IMG/VR virus record: IMGVR_UViG_3300044712_002679
Location: 116,406 to 180,405 of that record
Length of the DNA stretch: 64,000 nucleotides
Direction: 5' to 3' (one strand)
Source of the DNA: a virus
The position numbers were made by a program, and so were the translations under genes. Numbering within the stretch: the stretch's first letter is position 1; each line of letters opens with the position of its first letter. Below the pieces are notes generated by a model. That model saw nothing but the letters and a program-made list of their open reading frames with translations. It had not been told where the DNA came from and did no database searches. Of this stretch, positions 2,288-15,389 are shown one piece after another.

Positions 2288-2320
2288 TAAAAAAGCGTGA
2301 TTTTTCACGCTTTTTTATTT
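2288..2320. terminator. bidirectional intrinsic terminator (AAGCGTG...CACGCTT hairpin + T-run) between convergent genes
   Basis: 7-bp inverted repeat flanked by AAAAA and TTTTTT. Confidence 0.65.
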
Positions 2321-3121
2321 ATTCCATTTTAATTCGATAGCTTCAATCATTTTTGGCATATTTGCACTATAAAAACCTGCAGCATTAATGCATCCACATT
2401 CAATAATCTTATATTCAGGTTTATCATCTATTAGCACTTCACAAATATCCATAACAAATGCTTCAGCTAATTGATATATTTTAACCATCTGTTTACAAAA
2501 TTCTAATGCACCAACATCAACATCTTCGCTTCTTCTAATCCAACCACCCATTCTATAAAGACTTCCTGTGACCACTTCACCACCAATAATCCAAAATCTA
2601 AATTCTTTTGTAATATATTTAGGTGTACTAACTTGTATTTCAGTATTATCATTAAGGGATGTTTCTTCACCTTTTTTATAGAATTCTTCTTTCCAAGCAC
2701 ACCATTCATCTTTAGTATAAACTTTACCAGTAAAATATTTAGTATCTTCACATGGTCTAGCAAAAAACAATTCATCATTTATATCATCACCAAATCTTTG
2801 AATTTTTGAATCATAATTTAGAAGATTTTCCTTATAATACTTACTATAAACACGATAATCATGATTTTCATTCAATAAAGAACCAGGATGCCAACCATAC
2901 TTTTTTGCCAACCTTGCCATTTTTACTGAACCAAAACAAAATATATCCTTTCTTTTTGTTTTAAATTCAAAATCTTCAATAAAAGGTCTAACTTTAACTA
3001 CTTCATAATCAAAGTTAAATCTATCTAAAGTATTTATCAAAACATCAAAGTTTTCTTCTTTGAATGTGTTTTCTTGAATAACGTAATACATAAATAAATT
3101 TATTTTTTTAATATATAACAC
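2315..3121 (-). CDS. ATP-grasp-like protein (paralog of 58155-59207)
   Basis: shares block FRFWIIGGEVVTGSLY / YRFIVVDNIVVSGSLY and overall layout with 58155-59207; ATP-grasp assignment from motif memory only. Confidence 0.5.
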   Translation of the reverse strand: MLYIKKINLFMYYVIQENTFKEENFDVLINTLDRFNFDYEVVKVRPFIEDFEFKTKRKDIFCFGSVKMARLAKKYGWHPGSLLNENHDYRVYSKYYKENLLNYDSKIQRFGDDINDELFFARPCEDTKYFTGKVYTKDEWCAWKEEFYKKGEETSLNDNTEIQVSTPKYITKEFRFWIIGGEVVTGSLYRMGGWIRRSEDVDVGALEFCKQMVKIYQLAEAFVMDICEVLIDDKPEYKIIECGCINAAGFYSANMPKMIEAIELKWNK

Positions 3122-3186: not shown

Positions 3187-4569
3187 TTATATCGAACTTA
3201 TTTGATTGAATTTTTCTAATGCTATTTCCAAATTACCGAAGAATAGTTTTAATTTTTGATCGTTTTCTCTTAACATAATATGAATAATATTTTTTAATCC
3301 ATTATGTTCAAATAGTGTTTTTTCTAATAAATCTAAATCAAATGTCACAATGGCTTTATCAATATTCTTTTGAATTCTAAATGTATTCATAAATTTAATT
3401 TTATCTAAAATCTTTCTATGTCCATTGAAAAAATTATTAGCTTTTTCTAAAATATATTTAGGTGATAATTTTTTATCTTCACCTAAGTGATATGCCTTAC
3501 ACATCAATGCTATTTGTTCCAAATAAAAAATTAAAGATTCTGCATCATCTGACAATTCACCTTTCTTTTCAATATATTCTTTGATATTACTTAAATCACC
3601 ATCCAATTTAACAAATAAATTAAAATCTATTTTAATATTTTTTCTCGATACTATTGTAAGTGGTAAATTTTTTCCACCATAACTTAAAAATTTTTTAACA
3701 ACATCTAAGTATTCTTTTACTTCTTTTTCATCTTTCTTAATATTATAACCATCACAATATAAATAATTATTTCCTAACGAAAAAATTGGAGTGTAACTAA
3801 CATTGTTTATCAATTTTTTTTGAAAAAAATGAAACAATAAATCATCACCCCTATGATGTTCATCCGATCTAGCTATTGGTATAATATCTGATGTATTATG
3901 ATTAATCATAATATACCCGACATTATCATAATCACCCACATTTAATCCTTTACCAGAATTATTATTTAATATAATTTGAGTTTTCCAATCAGATACATTG
4001 GATATATCACCACTAATGTCTTGATATTTTTGAAGTTTTTCAGGTATTGTAAATTTTATACCCTCATTTATACCCTCATTTATACCCTCATTTACTTTGA
4101 TAAAATTATAATACCAATCTTCTAATTGAAATTCATTACTAAAATATTTAATGTTTTCAGGTTTAAAATTAACCATTTCCCGTCCTTTTATAATAATACC
4201 ATCATATCCCATTTTTTGTAATTCATCTTCAATTGTCGTATTATTAGAAAAATATCTTTTACTTTGTGGTACATTATGTTCTTTACAAAAATTATTAATC
4301 ATTACATTATATTCCCATATTTCCCAATCATTTAAAGTATTAAAAATTTTTGGTTTTTTTGGAATTGCATTAACAATAAAATATACTTTACCATATTGTT
4401 TAGCTAAATCTTTATTGGATAATGCTGCCGTGTATAATCCTCTACCTAACATAGCACCCGCATCATTTTCTAATCCAGCTTCTTTTATCCCACGAATAGT
4501 AACATTCTTTCGCTTCCACGATAAATATTCTTTCCTAGATTCATTATATTTAATAAATTCTGTAAACAT
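3187..4569 (-). CDS. hypothetical protein (460 aa) with EGIN tandem repeat
   Basis: long ORF; contains NEGINEGINEGI encoded by 12-bp DNA repeat at 4057-4092. Confidence 0.55.
   Translation of the reverse strand: MFTEFIKYNESRKEYLSWKRKNVTIRGIKEAGLENDAGAMLGRGLYTAALSNKDLAKQYGKVYFIVNAIPKKPKIFNTLNDWEIWEYNVMINNFCKEHNVPQSKRYFSNNTTIEDELQKMGYDGIIIKGREMVNFKPENIKYFSNEFQLEDWYYNFIKVNEGINEGINEGIKFTIPEKLQKYQDISGDISNVSDWKTQIILNNNSGKGLNVGDYDNVGYIMINHNTSDIIPIARSDEHHRGDDLLFHFFQKKLINNVSYTPIFSLGNNYLYCDGYNIKKDEKEVKEYLDVVKKFLSYGGKNLPLTIVSRKNIKIDFNLFVKLDGDLSNIKEYIEKKGELSDDAESLIFYLEQIALMCKAYHLGEDKKLSPKYILEKANNFFNGHRKILDKIKFMNTFRIQKNIDKAIVTFDLDLLEKTLFEHNGLKNIIHIMLRENDQKLKLFFGNLEIALEKFNQISSI
4057..4092. repeat. 12-bp tandem repeat x3 (tataccctcatt) inside CDS 3187-4569
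   Basis: three perfect copies read directly. Confidence 0.8.
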
Positions 4570-4889: not shown

Positions 4890-5091
4890 TCTATGTAAAG
4901 ATTGAATCTGCTAATGATAAAGGATATGAAGTTGAAAAATTTGAATTGGATTCCCACGTTTTTTATTTAATTCAAATTGGTGAAAAAGTTGATGTAAAAA
5001 TTAATTATGATAGGTATAATAATAAAACATCTGTTATGGGTATTGATGAATATTATTATCATAATTATTTAAATGACTATTGAATATTTTG

Positions 5092-5178
5092 TGTGCTAGG
5101 TGGGACTCGAACCCACGGTGAAGCTTACGCTTATCTGATTAAGAGTCAGGACCGTTCGCCAACTACGGATACTAGCAC
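5092..5178 (-). tRNA. class-II (long variable arm) tRNA with anticodon CUU and discriminator A73
   Basis: 7-bp acceptor GTGCTAG/CTAGCAC, T-arm GTGGG-TTCGAGT-CCCAC, anticodon loop CTCTTAA (U33, CUU, A37), 17-nt variable arm with AAGC/GCTT stem; 87 nt. Confidence 0.55.
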
Positions 5179-5186
5179 ATTTTTTG

Positions 5187-5258
5187 CAGGCTGACAAGGA
5201 TTCGAACCCTGATCTAGAGATTTGGAGTCACTTATGCTAACCGTTGCACCATCAACCT
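5187..5258 (-). tRNA. tRNA-Trp (CCA)
   Basis: acceptor AGGTTGA/TCAGCCT (one G-U), T-arm CAGGG-TTCGAAT-CCTTG, anticodon loop CTCCAAA; one U-U mismatch in anticodon stem. Confidence 0.65.
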
Positions 5259-5271
5259 ATTACATAACTAT

Positions 5272-5304
5272 AAAATGGCAGCAAATTCAATTTGCTGCCA
5301 TTTT
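5272..5304. other. perfect 14-bp-arm palindrome (AAAATGGCAGCAAATT-ca-AATTTGCTGCCATTTT) between two tRNA genes
   Basis: read directly; followed by T-run in the direction of tRNA transcription. Confidence 0.7.
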
Positions 5305-5307
5305 ATT

Positions 5308-5443
5308 GTGGAGAAAGAAGGATTCGAACCCCCGACACACGGCTCCCATTGCTTAGATTTTTGGTTTGCTGTGCATAATTTTTACTTTCGACAAATTACG
5401 TTTTTCTCTTTTTACGTTGCTCTACCAACTGAGCTATTTCTCC
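5308..5443 (-). tRNA. interrupted tRNA: canonical 5' acceptor/D-arm and T-arm/3' acceptor separated by ~60-nt AT-rich insert
   Basis: 5' GGAGAAA-TA-GCTCAGTTGGTAGAGC... and ...GGGGG-TTCGAAT-CCTTC-TTTCTCC-A pair perfectly as one acceptor stem; anticodon arm not resolvable. Confidence 0.5.
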
Positions 5444-5450
5444 ATTTTTT

Positions 5451-5948
5451 TTATTCAGGTAAATCCCAAATATAATACTTATCTTCTTTTTCATATATTG
5501 TATCACGAGGTTCCAAATCAATATCTTCCAAATATCCAATACAATTATGAAAATTAGCCGAATCTGTATGATTCCATCTACTGTAATCATCATGTGTTCT
5601 TTGAAAATATGTAGTCAAAAATGATTCAATATATCCATGGTGTACCAATAGTGAATTGCTTGTATAAAAACATATCTTATGACCATTAATTATAGCAAAT
5701 GAAAAATTTATGTATACTGGTAATGTTTCAGATTTAATTTTACCATTTCCGTTAATATTCAATTCTATTATATAATAAGACCACCCCCTACTTACTTCTT
5801 CCCAATTATATTTAGGATCATTGTGATAATCTTGCCACAAATTAAATCTTTCTTCACTTGTTGCTTCAACTATCCATTCTACATCTTCTAAATAAGAATT
5901 TCCTAACTTTTTGTGTAAATAATTCCTGTTGTTTAATCCTACATCCAT
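5451..5948 (-). CDS. hypothetical protein (165 aa)
   Basis: clean ORF between tRNA genes; no motif recognised. Confidence 0.5.
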   Translation of the reverse strand: MDVGLNNRNYLHKKLGNSYLEDVEWIVEATSEERFNLWQDYHNDPKYNWEEVSRGWSYYIIELNINGNGKIKSETLPVYINFSFAIINGHKICFYTSNSLLVHHGYIESFLTTYFQRTHDDYSRWNHTDSANFHNCIGYLEDIDLEPRDTIYEKEDKYYIWDLPE

Positions 5949-6011
5949 AATATCAAATTTAATGTTTGATATTTTTAGATATAAATAAATGAAAAGTTTA
6001 ATAATTTTTTG

Positions 6012-6104
6012 CGGAGAATGTCAGGCTCGAACTGACACACCAGATTACTCATCCGATGACAAGTTTTCAAAACTAGGACGATACCAATTTCGTTTTAATT
6101 CTCC
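6012..6104 (-). tRNA. tRNA-Ser (UGA)
   Basis: 93 nt, acceptor GGAGAAT/ATTCTCC + G73, anticodon loop TTTGAAA, long variable arm, T-arm GTCAG-TTCGAGC-CTGAC. Confidence 0.65.
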
Positions 6105-6108
6105 AAAG

Positions 6109-6182
6109 GGGTAAATTACAGATTCGAACTGTAACTAAGTGAACCACAATCACCCATGCTAACCATTAACACCAATTTACCC
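6109..6182 (-). tRNA. tRNA-His (GUG) with genomically encoded G-1 pairing C73
   Basis: G-1 + GGTAAAT/ATTTACC + C73, anticodon loop TTGTGGT, T-arm TACAG-TTCGAAT-CTGTA. Confidence 0.75.
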
Positions 6183-6185
6183 ATA

Positions 6186-6995
6186 TTACCAATTCATTTT
6201 TCTTCCTTTTTTCCAACCATTTAATAAATAATCATTTAAATCTTTTTTATTTATCTTGATACATTTTTTTTCATTTTCACATATTATCCAACATTTTCCA
6301 AATTGTGAATTCTTTTCACCTTTTTGGGATATTGAATTTGCTTGACCAATTTTTATTTTAGTTTCATCTGAATGTTTTCTATTAACCCAAAATGATATTA
6401 ATTCACCATTAATATATCGTTCATCATCTTTACTAACTAGCATCACCTTATCTATATTATCTTTAACTAGTACTAGTCCTTTGTGTATTGATATTAATTC
6501 ACCATTAATATATCGTTCATCAGTATTAAAAACATTAAAAATATTACCATCTTTATCTTTACATATAATTCTATTTTTTTGTATAGATATCAATTCACCA
6601 TTAATATATCGTTCATCATCTTTACTAACTTTCAAAATATTACCATCTACATCATTAACCACAATTTTATTTTGAAATATTGGTCTATATTTATCTAAAT
6701 TATTATTTATATAATACCAACCACCACTTCCACCCAAAGTTAAATTGTAATATTCTTTAGAATTAACCACATCTTCATTTACTAATTCTTTTTCTTTTTT
6801 TAACATATCTTCTTTAGATTTACAAAAATGCAATATAACTTTTTCAAAATTATCAACACCATATTTATTTATAGCATTTTTTAAATATTTACCCGACCCC
6901 ATATAATCATCAAAAATATTTTCTGTTACATGACAGCCAATATATTTTTTATTATTAATTTTATTGGTTATTTCATAAATAATATAATTTTTCAT
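6186..6995 (-). CDS. GIY-YIG homing endonuclease with C-terminal tandem ~22-aa repeats
   Basis: N-terminus KNYIIYEITNK...KYIGCHV...MGSGKYLKNAINKYG (GIY...YIG + catalytic block); start moved to internal ATG 6995 to avoid overlapping tRNA 7056-7132; repeats (ERYINGELISI) encoded by DNA repeats 6390-6665. Confidence 0.7.
   Translation of the reverse strand: MKNYIIYEITNKINNKKYIGCHVTENIFDDYMGSGKYLKNAINKYGVDNFEKVILHFCKSKEDMLKKEKELVNEDVVNSKEYYNLTLGGSGGWYYINNNLDKYRPIFQNKIVVNDVDGNILKVSKDDERYINGELISIQKNRIICKDKDGNIFNVFNTDERYINGELISIHKGLVLVKDNIDKVMLVSKDDERYINGELISFWVNRKHSDETKIKIGQANSISQKGEKNSQFGKCWIICENEKKCIKINKKDLNDYLLNGWKKGRKMNW
6390..6665. repeat. imperfect tandem DNA repeats (unit containing caccattaatatatcgttcatca) inside GIY-YIG gene
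   Basis: at least three near-identical ~35-bp blocks at ~6397, 6496, 6596. Confidence 0.65.
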
Positions 6996-7055
6996 AACTT
7001 TTTTATTTGTATATATTAAATAAAAAAGTTCGATTTTAGTTCGAATTAAATTTTT

Positions 7056-7132
7056 GGGTGAAAGACGGGGTACGATCCCGCAAAGTTCCTGGTTCACAGC
7101 CAGGCAAGTCTACCAATTCCTCTACAATCACC
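7056..7132 (-). tRNA. tRNA-His-like (anticodon GUG, G-1:C73) with A54/U58-swapped T-loop and two U-U acceptor mismatches; possibly degenerate
   Basis: anticodon arm CCTGG-CTGTGAA-CCAGG, T-arm GCGGG-ATCGTAC-CCCGT. Confidence 0.4.
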
Positions 7133-7142
7133 ATAATTATTG

Positions 7143-7214
7143 TCAACCAGATGGGATTCGAACCCACGTAAACCGTGATTCACAATCACGTCCCGAACAC
7201 CAAACACGGGTTGC
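7143..7214 (-). tRNA. tRNA-His-like (GUG) with E. coli-like T-arm GTGGG-TTCGAAT-CCCAT, G-1:A73, weak D-arm; possibly degenerate
   Basis: anticodon arm CGTGA-TTGTGAA-TCACG perfect; acceptor CAACCCG/CTGGTTG with one mismatch. Confidence 0.4.
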
Positions 7215-7222
7215 TGGAGGGG

Positions 7223-7308
7223 CGGAGAAAACAGGAATCGAACCTGCACCCCAGTTACCCGAGGAACGGTTTTCCAAACCGTTGCAGTACCATTATGCTT
7301 ACTTCTCC
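7223..7308 (-). tRNA. tRNA-Ser (GGA)
   Basis: 86 nt, acceptor GGAGAAG/TTTCTCC + G73, anticodon arm ACGGT-TTGGAAA-ACCGT, variable-arm hairpin CCTCGG/CTGGGG. Confidence 0.65.
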
Positions 7309-7535
7309 AATTTTTTAAATTTTTCTTTTAATTTTTCTTTTACTTCATCAGAAGTATAATACCATTTCATATTAATTTGCATTTCAGAAATGATAATTCC
7401 CCATTCTGCTTTTGCTGAAAATTGTGGTTTGTATTTAATTCTTTGATAAATAAATATAAATGGCACACATAAATACCAACGATATCTAATTATTCTTTCA
7501 ATTAAATTGCATTCTTGAAATCTTTTATTTTTCAT
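7299..7535 (-). CDS. hypothetical small protein (78 aa) within tRNA array
   Basis: ORF in tRNA-free gap; start assignment uncertain. Confidence 0.3.
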   Translation of the reverse strand: MKNKRFQECNLIERIIRYRWYLCVPFIFIYQRIKYKPQFSAKAEWGIIISEMQINMKWYYTSDEVKEKLKEKFKKLEK

Positions 7536-7554
7536 AATTTATACATTTTTTAGC

Positions 7555-7638
7555 GGAGAGAAAGGGGGTCGAACCCTCAAGCCGAATAAACGACCGACAG
7601 ATTAGCAATCTGCTCCAATACCATTATGGGACCTCTCC
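7555..7638 (-). tRNA. tRNA-Ser (GCU)
   Basis: acceptor GGAGAGG/TCTCTCC + G73, anticodon arm GCAGA-TTGCTAA-TCTGT, long variable arm. Confidence 0.65.
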
Positions 7639-7728
7639 AAAATCAGAATACATTTTGTGGGTTTGAACCACGTTAACAAAGTTTCAGTTTGTATTTTAAC
7701 CTTTTGTTTTTGCTGTGCGTATTCTTTG

Positions 7729-7801
7729 TGGGGTAGACTGGTTACGATCCAGTTCCTATGGATTTTCAGTCCACCGCAATGACCACATCTGCCACTACCC
7801 C
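7729..7801 (-). tRNA. tRNA-Phe (GAA) with A54/U58-swapped T-loop (ATCGTAA)
   Basis: acceptor GGGGTAG/CTACCCC + A73, anticodon arm GTGGA-CTGAAAA-TCCAT, T-arm ACTGG-ATCGTAA-CCAGT. Confidence 0.65.
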
Positions 7802-7810
7802 AATTATTTG

Positions 7811-7894
7811 CGGAGAAAAAGGGATTCGAACCCCCACACCAGTTTCCCGATTTCACTGTTTTCGAAACAGCTAACTACACCAATAGGCTTCTCC
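7811..7894 (-). tRNA. tRNA-Ser (CGA)
   Basis: acceptor GGAGAAG/TTTCTCC + G73, anticodon arm GCTGT-TTCGAAA-ACAGT, long variable arm. Confidence 0.6.
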
Positions 7895-8055
7895 AAGTTC
7901 AGAATACTTTTGTGACATCGAATCACGACAAATTTCAAGTTTGCTTTACCTTTTTTTGCTGTATGTATTCTTTTTTGTGGACTGTATCGGATTTGCACCG
8001 ATTGTTAGCATAATTACTTTTTTGGTTTGCTATGCTTCAAAAAGCAACAGCCCAT

Positions 8056-8676
8056 TTATTTTTTATATTTATTTTTATTTTTTCCACCATGTGTATCTAA
8101 TGTTGCATTACAATTTGGACATAATATTCTTAAATTTGTTAATCTATGATCATTATTTATCCCATTTATATGATCTAATATTAAACTTATATGTTTTCCT
8201 TTCCAATTTTCATCTTGTCCACACATTTCACACTTTCTTTTTTTTAATCCATCTTCATATAATCTTTCTTTCAAATGTGTTGTATTAAAATTGGAATTTT
8301 CAACTAATATTAATGATAAATCTATTTTTTTATTTAAATTTTTTATTTGAAATTCATATTTAATAAAATGATCAATATTTATATCATATTTTTTAATATA
8401 TTTTTTTAATGTGTTATAAGAAGAACCAAAATTATTAATATCTAATTTAATTAAACATTCTTTATATGTTTTTGAATTTTTAACAATTTCAATTAAATAA
8501 TCTTTTTCATATTTATTTTTTACACTATAATGTGCTTCTATTTTTAATTTTTTTCGTCTTTCCTCAATTGATCTTATTGATCTATCTAATTTAGTTAAAC
8601 AATATTTTAAACCATAAATAGGATAATTTTCAATCAATATATCATCTTCATTTTTTGTCCATTTTTTATTTTTCAT
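8056..8676 (-). CDS. HNH homing endonuclease
   Basis: C-terminal CEMCGQDENWKGKHISLILDHINGINNDHRLTNLRILCPNCN (Cys pairs + DH...N...H...N HNH core); located inside tRNA array. Confidence 0.75.
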   Translation of the reverse strand: MKNKKWTKNEDDILIENYPIYGLKYCLTKLDRSIRSIEERRKKLKIEAHYSVKNKYEKDYLIEIVKNSKTYKECLIKLDINNFGSSYNTLKKYIKKYDINIDHFIKYEFQIKNLNKKIDLSLILVENSNFNTTHLKERLYEDGLKKRKCEMCGQDENWKGKHISLILDHINGINNDHRLTNLRILCPNCNATLDTHGGKNKNKYKK

Positions 8677-8767
8677 TTTAAGTTATTTTTTGTAGTATAT
8701 ATAAATATTTTAAACTACAAAAAATCACTATGAACTATAAAAATTCAAAAAAATAGTTATGGGAATG

Positions 8768-8848
8768 CACGACAGAGAGGATTCGAACCCCTGAACCTTT
8801 CGGTATAGTTTTGGAGACTATCAGCTTTAACCACTTGCATACTGCCGT
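8768..8848 (-). tRNA. tRNA-Trp-like (CCA) with 12-nt extended variable region; D-stem poorly formed
   Basis: acceptor ACGGCAG/CTGTCGT, anticodon arm ATAGT-CTCCAAA-ACTAT perfect, T-arm AGGGG-TTCGAAT-CCTCT. Confidence 0.45.
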
Positions 8849-8867
8849 ATATTTTTGCGGAGGCGAA

Positions 8868-8951
8868 GGGAATCGAACCCCCAAATCATTACTGATTTAC
8901 TTGTTTTCAAGACAAGCCCCTCGTCCATTCGGACCACCTCCAAATACAATT
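8868..8951 (-). tRNA. tRNA-Ser (UGA), second copy
   Basis: acceptor GGAGGTG/CGCCTCC + G73, anticodon arm CTTGT-CTTGAAA-ACAAG, variable hairpin AAATCA/TGATTT. Confidence 0.65.
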
Positions 8952-9001
8952 TAAAAGATTGTTCGTTATTTTTTGCTGTATGTATTCTTTGTGGGGTGAG
9001 G

Positions 9002-9077
9002 TGGATTCGAACCACCATCCCTGGATTTTCAGTCCAGTGCGAAACTGACCAACTGCGCTACCACCCCAATAAGTATA
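9002..9077 (-). tRNA. tRNA-Phe (GAA), second copy, with enlarged D region (extra hairpin CAGT-TTCGC-ACTG)
   Basis: acceptor GGGGTGG/TCACCCC + A73, anticodon arm CTGGA-CTGAAAA-TCCAG, T-arm GGTGG-TTCGAAT-CCACC. Confidence 0.55.
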
Positions 9078-9094
9078 ACGTATGTGCGTCTGGT

Positions 9095-9167
9095 GGGTCA
9101 CGATCCCACGACTCCATCATTAAAAGTGATGTACTCTACCAACTGAGTTACAGACGCAAAAATATTC
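9095..9167 (-). tRNA. tRNA-Lys (UUU), canonical class I, A54/U58-swapped T-loop (ATCGTGA)
   Basis: acceptor GCGTCTG/CAGACGC + A73, D-arm ACTC-AGTTGGTA-GAGT, anticodon arm CATCA-CTTTTAA-TGATG. Confidence 0.75.
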
Positions 9168-9196
9168 AATATGTCAATGAACTTTAAAAAAAATTG

Positions 9197-9282
9197 TGAT
9201 CCCGATGGGACTCGAACCCATGTACAACTTTCGTATCCCACATTAAAAGTGTGGTGCCTCGTTCCAACTCGGCCACGGAATC
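9197..9282 (-). tRNA. class-II (long variable arm) tRNA with anticodon UUU and discriminator A73
   Basis: acceptor GATTCCG/CGGGATC (one G-U), 3-bp D-stem GCC/GGC, anticodon arm CCACA-CTTTTAA-TGTGG perfect, 16-nt variable arm, T-arm ATGGG-TTCGAGT-CCCAT. Confidence 0.55.
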
Positions 9283-14144: not shown

Positions 14145-14632
14145 ATTGGTAATATGTGAAATTCTTTTAAAAATATATAATTTACAATATATTCCCAATT
14201 AGGGAATTCTTTAGAACCAAATTTTATAAATTCACCTTTAAAATCTAATTGTCCATGCATATCAGTATCATCAATTAGATAATCTCCAATATGTAAAGAT
14301 TTATCACATGACATATCAAGTCTTTCTAATGTTTCAAATCCTAAATGTTCAAGAACCCAATATGCTTTTTCTGTATAACTATTTAGATTATATATTGATG
14401 GTCGAGTTAAAATACGAACTTCAAAATATTCTTCAAGTTTTTTAAATGCTTTAATTGCACCTGGGATTTCTTCCAATTTAATAAAAAATCCAAACTGTGA
14501 TTGTGGATATTTTTGTGTTGGACATTTTTCCAAATCATTTAAATATGCCTTTGCAAAATTGCAAAGAACCCCATCTAAATCCACATATATTATTTTATTT
14601 TTTTTCATTTTTAAAATTTTTAAATTTTTCAT
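14141..14632 (-). CDS. HAD-family 5'(3')-deoxyribonucleotidase
   Basis: N-terminal IIYVDLDGVLCNF (DxDGVL motif I of HAD deoxyribonucleotidases). Confidence 0.65.
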   Translation of the reverse strand: MKNLKILKMKKNKIIYVDLDGVLCNFAKAYLNDLEKCPTQKYPQSQFGFFIKLEEIPGAIKAFKKLEEYFEVRILTRPSIYNLNSYTEKAYWVLEHLGFETLERLDMSCDKSLHIGDYLIDDTDMHGQLDFKGEFIKFGSKEFPNWEYIVNYIFLKEFHILPI

Positions 14633-15389
14633 ATTTTCTATTCAAATATATATCAGACAAATTTTCTTCATAAATATAATTTAAAAAATTAAATGCATCT
14701 CTATACAAATATAATCTATTTGTTGAATAATGTTTTAAAATTTTTGTTTTTTTTGTTATTATTTTATTTTTTTCTAAAAAATCTTGAATTTGTTCTAAGC
14801 ATTCTTTAGTTGATATTAAATTTACTTTTATTCTATTATTATCTTTACCATATATTGTTAATGATCCATCACCATCAAACATACCAGCTATAAAATTCAA
14901 ATAATATTTTTCATCTATGTTTTTAATAATGAAATTATCACTTTTTTCAACATTTATATATTTTTGTAATTTTTTTGTGAATAAATTATTTGTAATAGAT
15001 ATTACATATGAAGTATATTCTTTATTGTTTCTTTTGTCAATAGTTGTATTTTTAACAATTTTATGTTCAGATTCTAATGACTTTTTAAATTTTATTAATA
15101 TTTCTTCATCTTTAGATACTAATCTAACTTTATTATTTTTTAAACAACCATCTGCAACAATAAAACCTAACCAATACGCTTTTTCTTTCGTGTCAATATT
15201 ATCAAAATATGATATATTGAATTTTAATTTGCTTTCATTTAACCTATTTCTATTTGTATTAATATTATTGTTTCTTAATATATTACTTACTGTTACTTGT
15301 GATATATTTAATTTTTTTGATATTTCAATTTGTTTATTTGTTAACGATAAATTAATTATTTCTGTTATTAAATCTTTATTTATTTTCAT
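14595..15389 (-). CDS. LAGLIDADG homing endonuclease (two-motif, monomeric type)
   Basis: AYWLGFIVADGCL and NFIAGMFDGDGSL motifs; N-terminal HTH-like segment. Confidence 0.7.
   Translation of the reverse strand: MKINKDLITEIINLSLTNKQIEISKKLNISQVTVSNILRNNNINTNRNRLNESKLKFNISYFDNIDTKEKAYWLGFIVADGCLKNNKVRLVSKDEEILIKFKKSLESEHKIVKNTTIDKRNNKEYTSYVISITNNLFTKKLQKYINVEKSDNFIIKNIDEKYYLNFIAGMFDGDGSLTIYGKDNNRIKVNLISTKECLEQIQDFLEKNKIITKKTKILKHYSTNRLYLYRDAFNFLNYIYEENLSDIYLNRKYEKFKNFKNEKK

Follow-up and report, generated by a model that had tools for sequence, protein, structure and literature searches.

The window analysed here, a 64,000-nucleotide (nt) stretch of viral DNA (IMG/VR record IMGVR_UViG_3300044712_002679, positions 116,406 to 180,405), carries on its minus strand, at positions 5092-5178, a real phage transfer RNA (tRNA) gene that combines the lysine anticodon CUU with an extra hairpin arm. 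According to textbooks, long variable arms are confined to the class-II tRNAs for leucine, serine, bacterial tyrosine and selenocysteine; as the original prediction on this DNA correctly held, no canonical tRNA of this class has the anticodon CUU. That prediction had presented the gene as a singular oddity. Instead, it is a member of a phage family, and the long-arm tRNA-Lys scaffold is a recurrent, virus-associated architecture: the long arm recurs on Lys anticodons and, more rarely, on those for Asn, Thr, Cys, Met and Trp, almost exclusively in viruses.

The gene is 87 nt long, with its 5′ end at position 5178, its discriminator base at 5092 and no encoded CCA, and reads GUGCUAG-UAU-CCGU-AGUUGGCGA-ACGG-U-CCUGA-CUCUUAA-UCAGA-U-AAGC-GUAA-GCUU-CACC-GUGGG-UUCGAGU-CCCAC-CUAGCAC-A. 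ARAGORN calls it as an 88-nt tRNA-Lys(ctt), the Rfam tRNA model RF00005 matches it over the full length of the model (1-71) at 47.7 bits (gathering score 29) with CUU aligned to positions 34-36, and the minimum free energy (MFE) structure computed with ViennaRNA is exactly the five-arm cloverleaf. The 5′ strand of the acceptor stem, GUGCUAG (5172-5178), forms 7 base pairs (bp) with CUAGCAC (5093-5099), next to A73 at 5092. A 3-nt connector, UAU (5169-5171), precedes the D arm CCGU-AGUUGGCGA-ACGG (5152-5168; Rfam alignment, MFE), and the connector and the CCGUAG motif are shared with relatives from Xanthomonas phage X1 and from loci L004, L005, L086 and L190. The D arm can be read in two ways: as 3 bp with an 11-nt loop (ARAGORN), which is how it had originally been described, or, following Rfam and the MFE structure, as four base pairs (CCGU/ACGG) closing a 9-nt loop, in which case an additional nucleotide follows position 9. 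The anticodon arm CCUGA-CUCUUAA-UCAGA (5134-5150) holds CUU at 5141-5143 (AAG on the plus strand), and its stem has four of five pairs owing to a C27.A43 mismatch, which is also found in L086, the closest relative, and in L030. It is followed by the 17-nt extra arm U-AAGC-GUAA-GCUU-CACC (5117-5133), consisting of a 4-bp stem, a GNRA loop and a 4-nt 3′ tail, and by the T arm GUGGG-UUCGAGU-CCCAC (5100-5116; Rfam, ARAGORN, MFE). The acceptor stem, the 17-nt variable region with its 4-bp stem, the T arm and A73 are all as originally predicted (ARAGORN, Rfam, MFE), and so is the anticodon loop C-U-CUU-A-A with CUU as the anticodon (ARAGORN; Rfam positions 34-36). Another anticodon register, such as UAA, is excluded, as the Rfam covariance model, ARAGORN and the MFE structure all give CUU; the covariance fold places no other triplet there, the acceptor and T arms are unbroken by all three methods, and the 5-bp anticodon stem of a sibling gene in the same window is unambiguous.

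This sibling, a second long-arm tRNA with the anticodon UUU (9197-9282, minus strand; Rfam 53.8 bits), lies where it had been predicted and represents another subfamily, with a 2-nt connector, a D arm GCCG...GGC and the extra arm UACG-AAAGU-UGUA (ARAGORN). Directly downstream of it is a class-I tRNA-Lys(UUU), also on the minus strand (Rfam 63.6 bits, ARAGORN), which exists as predicted, although its coordinates are 9085-9157 and not 9095-9167, a difference of 10 nt.

A sensitive blastn search with the target gene against 50,697 phage records returned matches annotated as ‘tRNA-Lys’ that are collinear with it through the extra arm. These are carried by 29 Caulobacter phiCbK-like phage records, Xanthomonas phage X1, Ruegeria/Roseobacter phages (including V10) and two uncultured phages of ~635 kb; by ARAGORN the matched genes are 84-91 nt long, have a CTT or TTT anticodon and often adjoin tRNA-Lys genes of 73-76 nt. 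IMG/VR was scanned with two structure-based patterns that place a Lys anticodon loop at class-II distance from the T loop, and at least 201 long tRNA-Lys genes, at least 184 of them unique, were confirmed by ARAGORN in the fetched loci. It should be noted that the loop C-U-YUU-A-A was in the search pattern for most family members. The same pattern applied to 596 gigabases of bacterial and archaeal genomes gave 120 hits, mostly due to chance, of which only seven were real; five of these seven lie in dense phage-like tRNA arrays.

The family statistics given here and below (counts over 178, 184 and 186) hold among the matches listed. The 7-bp acceptor stem is fully paired in 167 of 178 members and the 5-bp T stem in 170 of 178; the discriminator is A73 in 83% and U73 in 16%, and CCA is encoded in about half. 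The variable region, mostly 15 or 17 nt long (range 12-22 nt), starts with 0 or 1 nt, continues with a stem of 3-4 bp capped by a tetraloop (GNRA in 49%) and ends in a tail of 3-4 nt (CAUC/CACC). The target shares the 7/5 acceptor/T stems, the loop C-U-YUU-A-A and this arm plan, in which the small loop is mostly GNRA and the tail ends in C. Many of the carriers are large phages, with contigs of 200-630 kb, and the family spans phages of diverse size with 25-68% guanine-cytosine (GC) content. Members with U73 include the phiCbK-like ones and have a median locus GC of 0.46 versus 0.37; with only a weak GC trend, U73 cannot serve as a marker of high-GC (alphaproteobacterial) phages. These members are perhaps tied to hosts with a class-I lysyl-tRNA synthetase (LysRS). 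For class-I LysRS, A73 is a marginal determinant (PMC9976931).

The pattern of substitutions across the family indicates that the extra arm is under structural selection. An alignment of 50 diverse members, produced with MAFFT and excluding the window, was used for RNAalifold and for building a family covariance model, R1. RNAalifold predicted the fifth helix on its own, with 13, 25 and 16 sequences, respectively, showing double-compensatory changes at the three pairs. When the 15-nt class (n = 61) was examined in a fixed register, without per-sequence optimisation, the stem positions were paired in 98%, 93% and 89% of sequences, compared to 26-42% in slid registers, and GC, AU, UA and CG pairs were all present at each position. 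In a pair-count control, 94.7% of positions were paired versus 35-47% after sliding, and none of 500 shuffles reached the observed value. Within the window, R1 ranks the target first of 11 at 68.9 bits, followed by the UUU sibling (61.3 bits) and by a tRNA-Trp(CCA) at 8768-8848 (minus strand, 81 nt, G73; 49.5 bits) with a like extra arm, ACC-GAAA-GGU plus UC; the class-I tRNA-Lys scores 44.3 bits and the true class-II tRNA-Ser genes 21-38 bits. Consistently, in anticodon-masked global alignments the top neighbours of both window genes are all long-arm tRNA-Lys, the best non-Lys or short Lys tRNAs reaching about half the score; the target and the best short tRNA-Lys align with a score of only ~30/87.

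The nearest relatives point in the same direction. Compared to L086 (28% GC), the target has U-A instead of C-G at pair 2-71 and the arm stem AAGC/GCUU instead of GAG/CUC, whereas the UUU sibling differs from its near-identical relatives L139 and L183 by compensatory changes in the anticodon and T stems; such changes imply that these are functional genes. The notion that the target is a pseudogene or a gene-finder artefact might draw on the C27.A43 mismatch and on the weakness of several other ARAGORN calls in the same tRNA island, but it is effectively refuted by the R1 score and the compensatory changes relative to L086, in which the mismatch itself is kept. The Rfam score and the existence of hundreds of homologues argue against it as well.

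The original prediction described the gene as having a Leu/Ser-type body, which the identity elements do not bear out. The Leu determinant is A15-U48 (PMC9976931), present in phage tRNA-Leu (A15 in 89 of 96, U48 in 94 of 99), whereas long tRNA-Lys genes typically have G15 (117/184) and C48 (134/186); the target has G15 and C48 as well, leaving A73 as its share of the Leu set. Nor does A73 point to leucyl-tRNA synthetase (LeuRS) in particular, as had been suggested, since it is equally an identity base for Lys and Tyr (PMC9976931). Phage tRNA-Ser carry G73 (97/116), G2-C71 (112/116) and A3-U70 (97/116), their arm stems are mostly 5-6 bp long, and 95% have a tail of 0-2 nt. At the corresponding positions the target has A73, U2-A71 and G3-C70, and its arm stem of 4 bp is followed by a tail of 4 nt. 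A Ser-type body is therefore rejected for lack of these bases together with the short stem and long tail, and a Leu-type body for G15/C48 and because the Leu profile is almost never the best match in an ad hoc isotype classifier. This classifier, based on profile hidden Markov models with the anticodon masked, has a held-out accuracy of 70-79%, and its outcome depends on whether the arm is kept: with the arm intact (n = 178) it assigned 78 members to Tyr, 41 to Ser and 40 to Lys, and with the arm excised Lys was the best match for 101 of 178. Overall, the classifier is only partly informative, and the scaffold is most aptly regarded as a hybrid in its own right.

Its most probable cargo is lysine. 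The Lys identity set comprises the anticodon triplet and A73, and transplantation of UUU is sufficient in human tRNAs (PMC9976931); judged by its sequence, the target holds the complete set, CUU and A73. Additional support comes from other isotypes, as phage tRNAs whose anticodons specify Asn, Thr, Cys, Met, Trp, His or further amino acids can bear the arm module as well. In these non-Lys long-arm tRNAs, the discriminator is the modal base of the isotype in 88 of 103 cases (Asn G73 15/15, Trp G73 9/9, Cys U73 8/10, Thr U73 13/17, His C73 3/3), compared to 42 fitting an all-A (Leu/Tyr-type) and 29 an all-G (Ser-type) rule. The discriminator thus changes along with the anticodon, a coupling of anticodon and acceptor identity that cognate charging would predict. 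Furthermore, 55% of the long tRNA-Lys genes adjoin another tRNA-Lys; their neighbours are Lys in 129 cases versus 28 for the next isotype, with Tyr outside the top twelve. In the 22-tRNA island of phiCbK, the two long-arm genes are the sole tRNA-Lys genes, and phiCbK-like phages have no tRNA-Tyr (PMC3556154).

The meaning of the codons is also clear. AAA is the commonest codon in the window (10.0%; AAG, 1.0%). In alignments of the phage T5 A1-like DNA transfer protein encoded there with three homologues, lysine is the most frequent partner of AAA (48/117) and is matched by AAG in 7 of 9 positions; the Walker-A lysine of the helicase is likewise encoded by AAA. Both observations exclude a reassignment of AAA/AAG in this phage. 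Because the most abundant codon means lysine, misreading would harm the phage’s own proteome, and the deliberate mistranslation of Lys codons suggested in the original prediction is unlikely, all the more so as long-arm discriminators follow their own isotype.

With regard to the arm, we propose the following mechanism. The target would read AAG and its UUU sibling AAA and AAG, both being charged by the host LysRS through the anticodon and A73. In structure, the scaffold is a canonical 7/5 cloverleaf whose variable loop has, at its 5′ end, an inserted short hairpin capped by a GNRA loop; the 3-4 nt left behind it as a tail (C-A-Y-C) probably preserve the core contacts (C48 with G15). The extra arm would alter the shape presented to host tRNA-targeting nucleases (tRNases; PARIS AriB-like, PrrC/RloC-like and others), and the result would be a cleavage-resistant supply of Lys-tRNA for the most used codon, with an anticodon stem-loop still optimal for decoding. 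Taken as one, the reading of a lysine-carrying tRNA on a long-arm scaffold the arm of which evades nucleases is, in our judgement, evenly balanced between true and false, a grading that is a compromise and not the probability of both parts; for the arm by itself, action against host tRNases, a possibility that the original prediction had also raised, is the explanation that we favour, but it is a tentative proposal that falls short of being probable. More doubtful is its extension to other isotypes, whereby the GNRA-capped hairpin would be a portable module that phages add to tRNAs whose arm is normally short (Lys, Asn, Thr, Cys, Met, Trp), making them resistant or invisible to immune nucleases while cognate charging is kept. 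If true, this would be a shape-based counter-defence distinct from point mutations in the anticodon arm, and a virus-specific third architectural class of tRNA.

The observations that are consistent with this proposal are circumstantial. Antiphage tRNases repeatedly target tRNA-Lys. Phage T5 neutralises PARIS by means of tRNA-Lys/Thr/Asn variants (PMC12409363), and tRNAs for Thr(UGU) and Asn(GUU), too, can have a long arm. Of the long-arm tRNA-Lys, 66% retain U39-C40, versus 33% of short phage tRNA-Lys. The anticodon stem-loop is thus host-like and the body is altered beside its 3′ strand, which makes a shape-based shield plausible; such a shield would also explain why long and short tRNA-Lys are kept side by side.

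Several points weigh against the proposed reading. As regards the nuclease part, PrrC reportedly acts on anticodon stem-loops, so that the arm might not protect these, and the AriB recognition/cleavage sequence, U36-A-A-U-C/A41 (compare PMC12409363), is intact in the target; any protection would hence have to come from shape alone. To estimate how common long arms are, phage tRNA islands anchored on tRNA-Phe were used as an unbiased control. Long forms accounted for 2 of 55 Lys (~4%), 6 of 41 Ile, 3 of 32 Asn, 2 of 40 Thr and 1 of 23 Cys tRNAs. A special enrichment of long arms on Lys is accordingly unsupported; they are rare and no more frequent on Lys than on Ile, Asn, Thr or Cys, which leaves Lys-specific nucleases only weakly linked to the arm. 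As regards charging, class-II LysRS approaches the tRNA from the variable-loop side and the arm might hinder it. When the variable region was removed from all tRNAs, the assignments by the classifier were mixed, with 69 members going to Lys, 33 to Cys, 30 to Tyr and 25 to Ser. Moreover, the arm geometry resembles that of bacterial tRNA-Tyr: a stem of 3 bp together with a tail of 3-4 nt is found in 62% of tRNA-Tyr and 78% of long tRNA-Lys. The critical determinants of Escherichia coli tyrosyl-tRNA synthetase (TyrRS) are A73 and U35 (PMC9976931); the target has both of them and the arm geometry, although G34 and A36 are absent. The residual doubt about lysine therefore concerns TyrRS, and some tyrosylation is possible.

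Mistranslation is the form that this doubt takes: the arm would recruit TyrRS, or seryl-tRNA synthetase (SerRS) or LeuRS, and Lys codons would be read in part as Tyr, Ser or Leu. The Tyr-like arm, A73 with U35 and the arm-intact classifier, which picks Tyr for 78 of 178, speak for it, yet each synthetase meets an obstacle, namely G15/C48 in place of A15-U48 for LeuRS, the lack of G73 and G2-C71/A3-U70 along with the short stem and long tail for SerRS, and the missing G34 and A36 for TyrRS. In addition, U73 in 16% of the members and the G73, U73 or C73 kept by other long-arm isotypes are incompatible with TyrRS, the gene neighbours are Lys and not Tyr, phiCbK-like phages lack tRNA-Tyr (PMC3556154), and misreading of a codon that makes up 10% of the total and aligns with conserved lysines would be damaging. 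We regard this possibility as highly improbable.

The likelihoods of the remaining alternatives, as given here, mostly concern the purpose of the arm only. On a tRNA that would still decode Lys, the arm could be a handle or shield for the phage’s own machinery, be it a modification enzyme, a synthetase, a CCA-adding or repair enzyme, or a means of sparing the tRNA from phage-induced degradation of host tRNAs. The presence of the same module (short stem, often GNRA, 3-4-nt tail) on several isotypes in the same phages fits such a generic tag better than isotype-specific escape, the GNRA frequency (49% in long tRNA-Lys versus 10% in tRNA-Tyr) suggests a recognition surface, and many of the carriers are large phages, which in general encode much translation-related machinery. 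Conversely, no candidate partner protein was found near the island in the window, and the family is spread over phages that differ widely in size and GC content, so that we consider a handle unlikely, if worth keeping in mind. Rather unlikely, too, is that the arm is a tolerated, near-neutral insertion at the most permissive site of the tRNA, kept by descent in fast-evolving arrays on an extra tRNA-Lys that serves codon supply. The low frequency in the Phe-anchored control (~4% of Lys, similar in other isotypes), the co-occurrence of ordinary tRNA-Lys and the usefulness of extra Lys capacity where AAA is the commonest codon would all fit; the strong covariation, the conserved loop type and the C-A-Y-C tail across phages of 25-68% GC indicate, however, that the arm is selected. 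Finally, in line with the decoy role suggested in the original prediction, these molecules could be decoys or inhibitors, the host-like anticodon stem-loop of which titrates tRNA-Lys-directed nucleases or other tRNA-binding defence proteins, translation being secondary or none. The retention of U39-C40 and of the AriB site UUAAUC/A is compatible with this idea, and competition by viral tRNAs has been raised as a possibility by the authors of the AriB study (PMC12409363). A decoy nevertheless appears improbable given that CUU and UUU versions are both maintained, that the canonical T loop, paired 7-bp acceptor stem, A73 and CCA in about half of the members are those of a translating tRNA, and that long-arm genes are the sole tRNA-Lys in the main island of phiCbK.

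Comparison with known systems places nuclease escape closest to the tRNAs of phage T5, like which the long-arm family may work by analogy. In both cases, phage isoacceptors of the most-attacked tRNAs are carried beside the host supply, and the long-arm forms likewise include Lys, Thr(UGU) and Asn(GUU). The means differ: T5 uses the anticodon-stem substitutions U39A and A41C in a class-I body, whereas the long-arm family has a host-like anticodon stem-loop and an added helix, and in the target U39, C40 and A41 are intact. Bacterial tRNA-Tyr shares with long tRNA-Lys the arm plan (~1 nt, 3-4-bp stem, small loop, 3-4-nt tail), A73, U35, C32/U33/A37/A38 and the stem end GA/UC, but has GUA instead of YUU, GNRA loops in 10% instead of 49% and a GGG-rich acceptor stem not seen in long tRNA-Lys; Lys gene neighbours and 16% U73 further set the latter apart. 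Class-I tRNA-Lys has the same loop CUYUUAA, A73, 7/5 geometry, AGUUGG-type D loop and G15/C48; it differs in having a variable region of 4-5 nt as opposed to 12-22 nt, and in long tRNA-Lys the acceptor stem is often separated from the D stem by one more nucleotide. Allo-tRNAs, too, combine long arms with anticodons outside Leu, Ser and Tyr and occur in metagenomes and some phages (PMC5389517). They are characterised by an 8/4 or 9/3 acceptor/T geometry and an anticodon-independent Ser/Ala identity, and a Lys anticodon has been seen among them once (Mukai et al. 2017, PMC5389517); the long-arm Lys family, in contrast, is 7/5 with discriminators that follow the anticodon, and the 7/5 geometry rules the target out as an allo-tRNA. 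In the cellular Leu system one isotype likewise exists in short- and long-arm forms charged by the same synthetase, except that the arm is not an identity element there and was lost rather than gained.

A 7/5 long-arm phage tRNA-Lys was not found described in full-text searches of the literature, including the phiCbK genome paper, subscription-only papers being outside this scope; a 2020 review of non-canonical tRNAs never mentions phages. The architecture is thus apparently undescribed, although the genes themselves are not new, members having been labelled ‘tRNA-Lys’ in GenBank since at least 2012. If they prove to be charged with lysine, a class-II-like tRNA-Lys must be acceptable to LysRS, EF-Tu and the ribosome, something that tRNA engineers could use, and if the arm blocks defence tRNases, it would represent a new mechanism in the phage-host tRNA arms race. 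Cultured carriers are at hand in phiCbK/Caulobacter, X1/Xanthomonas and V10/Ruegeria. The family also calls for caution in annotation, as isotype calls by body shape and by anticodon can conflict for good biological reasons.

Unusual arms were encountered on other phage tRNAs as well. Xanthomonas phage X1 (L002, 786-871) encodes an 86-nt tRNA-Asn(GUU) with the arm GAUA-GAAA-UAUC and G73 adjoining a normal tRNA-Asn, and carries both long and short tRNA-Lys(CUU). The tRNA-Trp of phiCbK (gt001) is oversized at 84 nt, as is that of the window. Among the isotypes of the Phe-anchored control, Ile has the highest rate of long forms; in eight loci (L064, L066, L080, L085, L161, L179, L224 and L236), tRNA-Ile(UAU) of 90-95 nt have a longer extra arm with a recurrent CAGAUUA/CAGAUCA-like loop motif. 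A mirror image of long-arm Lys is provided by short, class-I-like phage tRNA-Leu, which make up 16 of 57 unique tRNA-Leu in the control sample (L365 onward) and are also present in the Lys-selected loci.

The window has a GC content of 25%, compared to ~50% for its tRNAs, which form an island at 5091-9282, all on the minus strand. Its A1-like protein is 39-42% identical to homologues from Maribacter, Cellulophaga and Flavobacterium phages, and it also encodes a family-B DNA polymerase, helicase/methyltransferase proteins and GIY-YIG, HNH and LAGLIDADG homing endonucleases; with this gene content, the stretch 5091-9282 is a phage tRNA island. A megablast search of the island against INPHARED phages gave no match, and no exact match to the tRNA segment of the window was present in IMG/VR. 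Three loci found via the A1-like protein have no tRNA within 10 kb, and a search for relatives via the open reading frame (ORF) at 3187-4569 returned none.

Three tRNA calls by ARAGORN, all on the minus strand and each under the Rfam gathering score, may be degenerate or unusual tRNAs: His (7056-7131), His (7142-7220) and Ser-CGA (7810-7894). One of the His calls overlaps the GIY-YIG ORF, and another call, the acceptor stem of which is poor, lies directly against tRNA-Ser(GGA). A 135-nt Rfam tRNA match at 5309-5443 (minus strand, 45.5 bits) has normal class-I acceptor, D and T arms and ~62 extra nucleotides within the anticodon arm, below the size of a group I intron; in intron mode ARAGORN reads it as tRNA-Leu(aag) interrupted at a non-canonical position by an intron of 55 nt, and its fold is no better than that of shuffled sequences. 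A Pfam/PHROG scan of the ORFs adjacent to the island for tRNA-related enzymes yielded only homing endonucleases, an R2K-clade ATP-grasp protein, a weak HD domain and a glycosyltransferase. The ATP-grasp protein (2315-3121, minus strand; PF14243, 1.8e-15) is encoded ~2 kb from the island. The GIY-YIG/NUMOD3 and HNH genes lie within the island and the LAGLIDADG gene is nearby (6186-7097, 8056-8676 and 14595-15389, minus strand), making the island a hotspot of mobile endonucleases.

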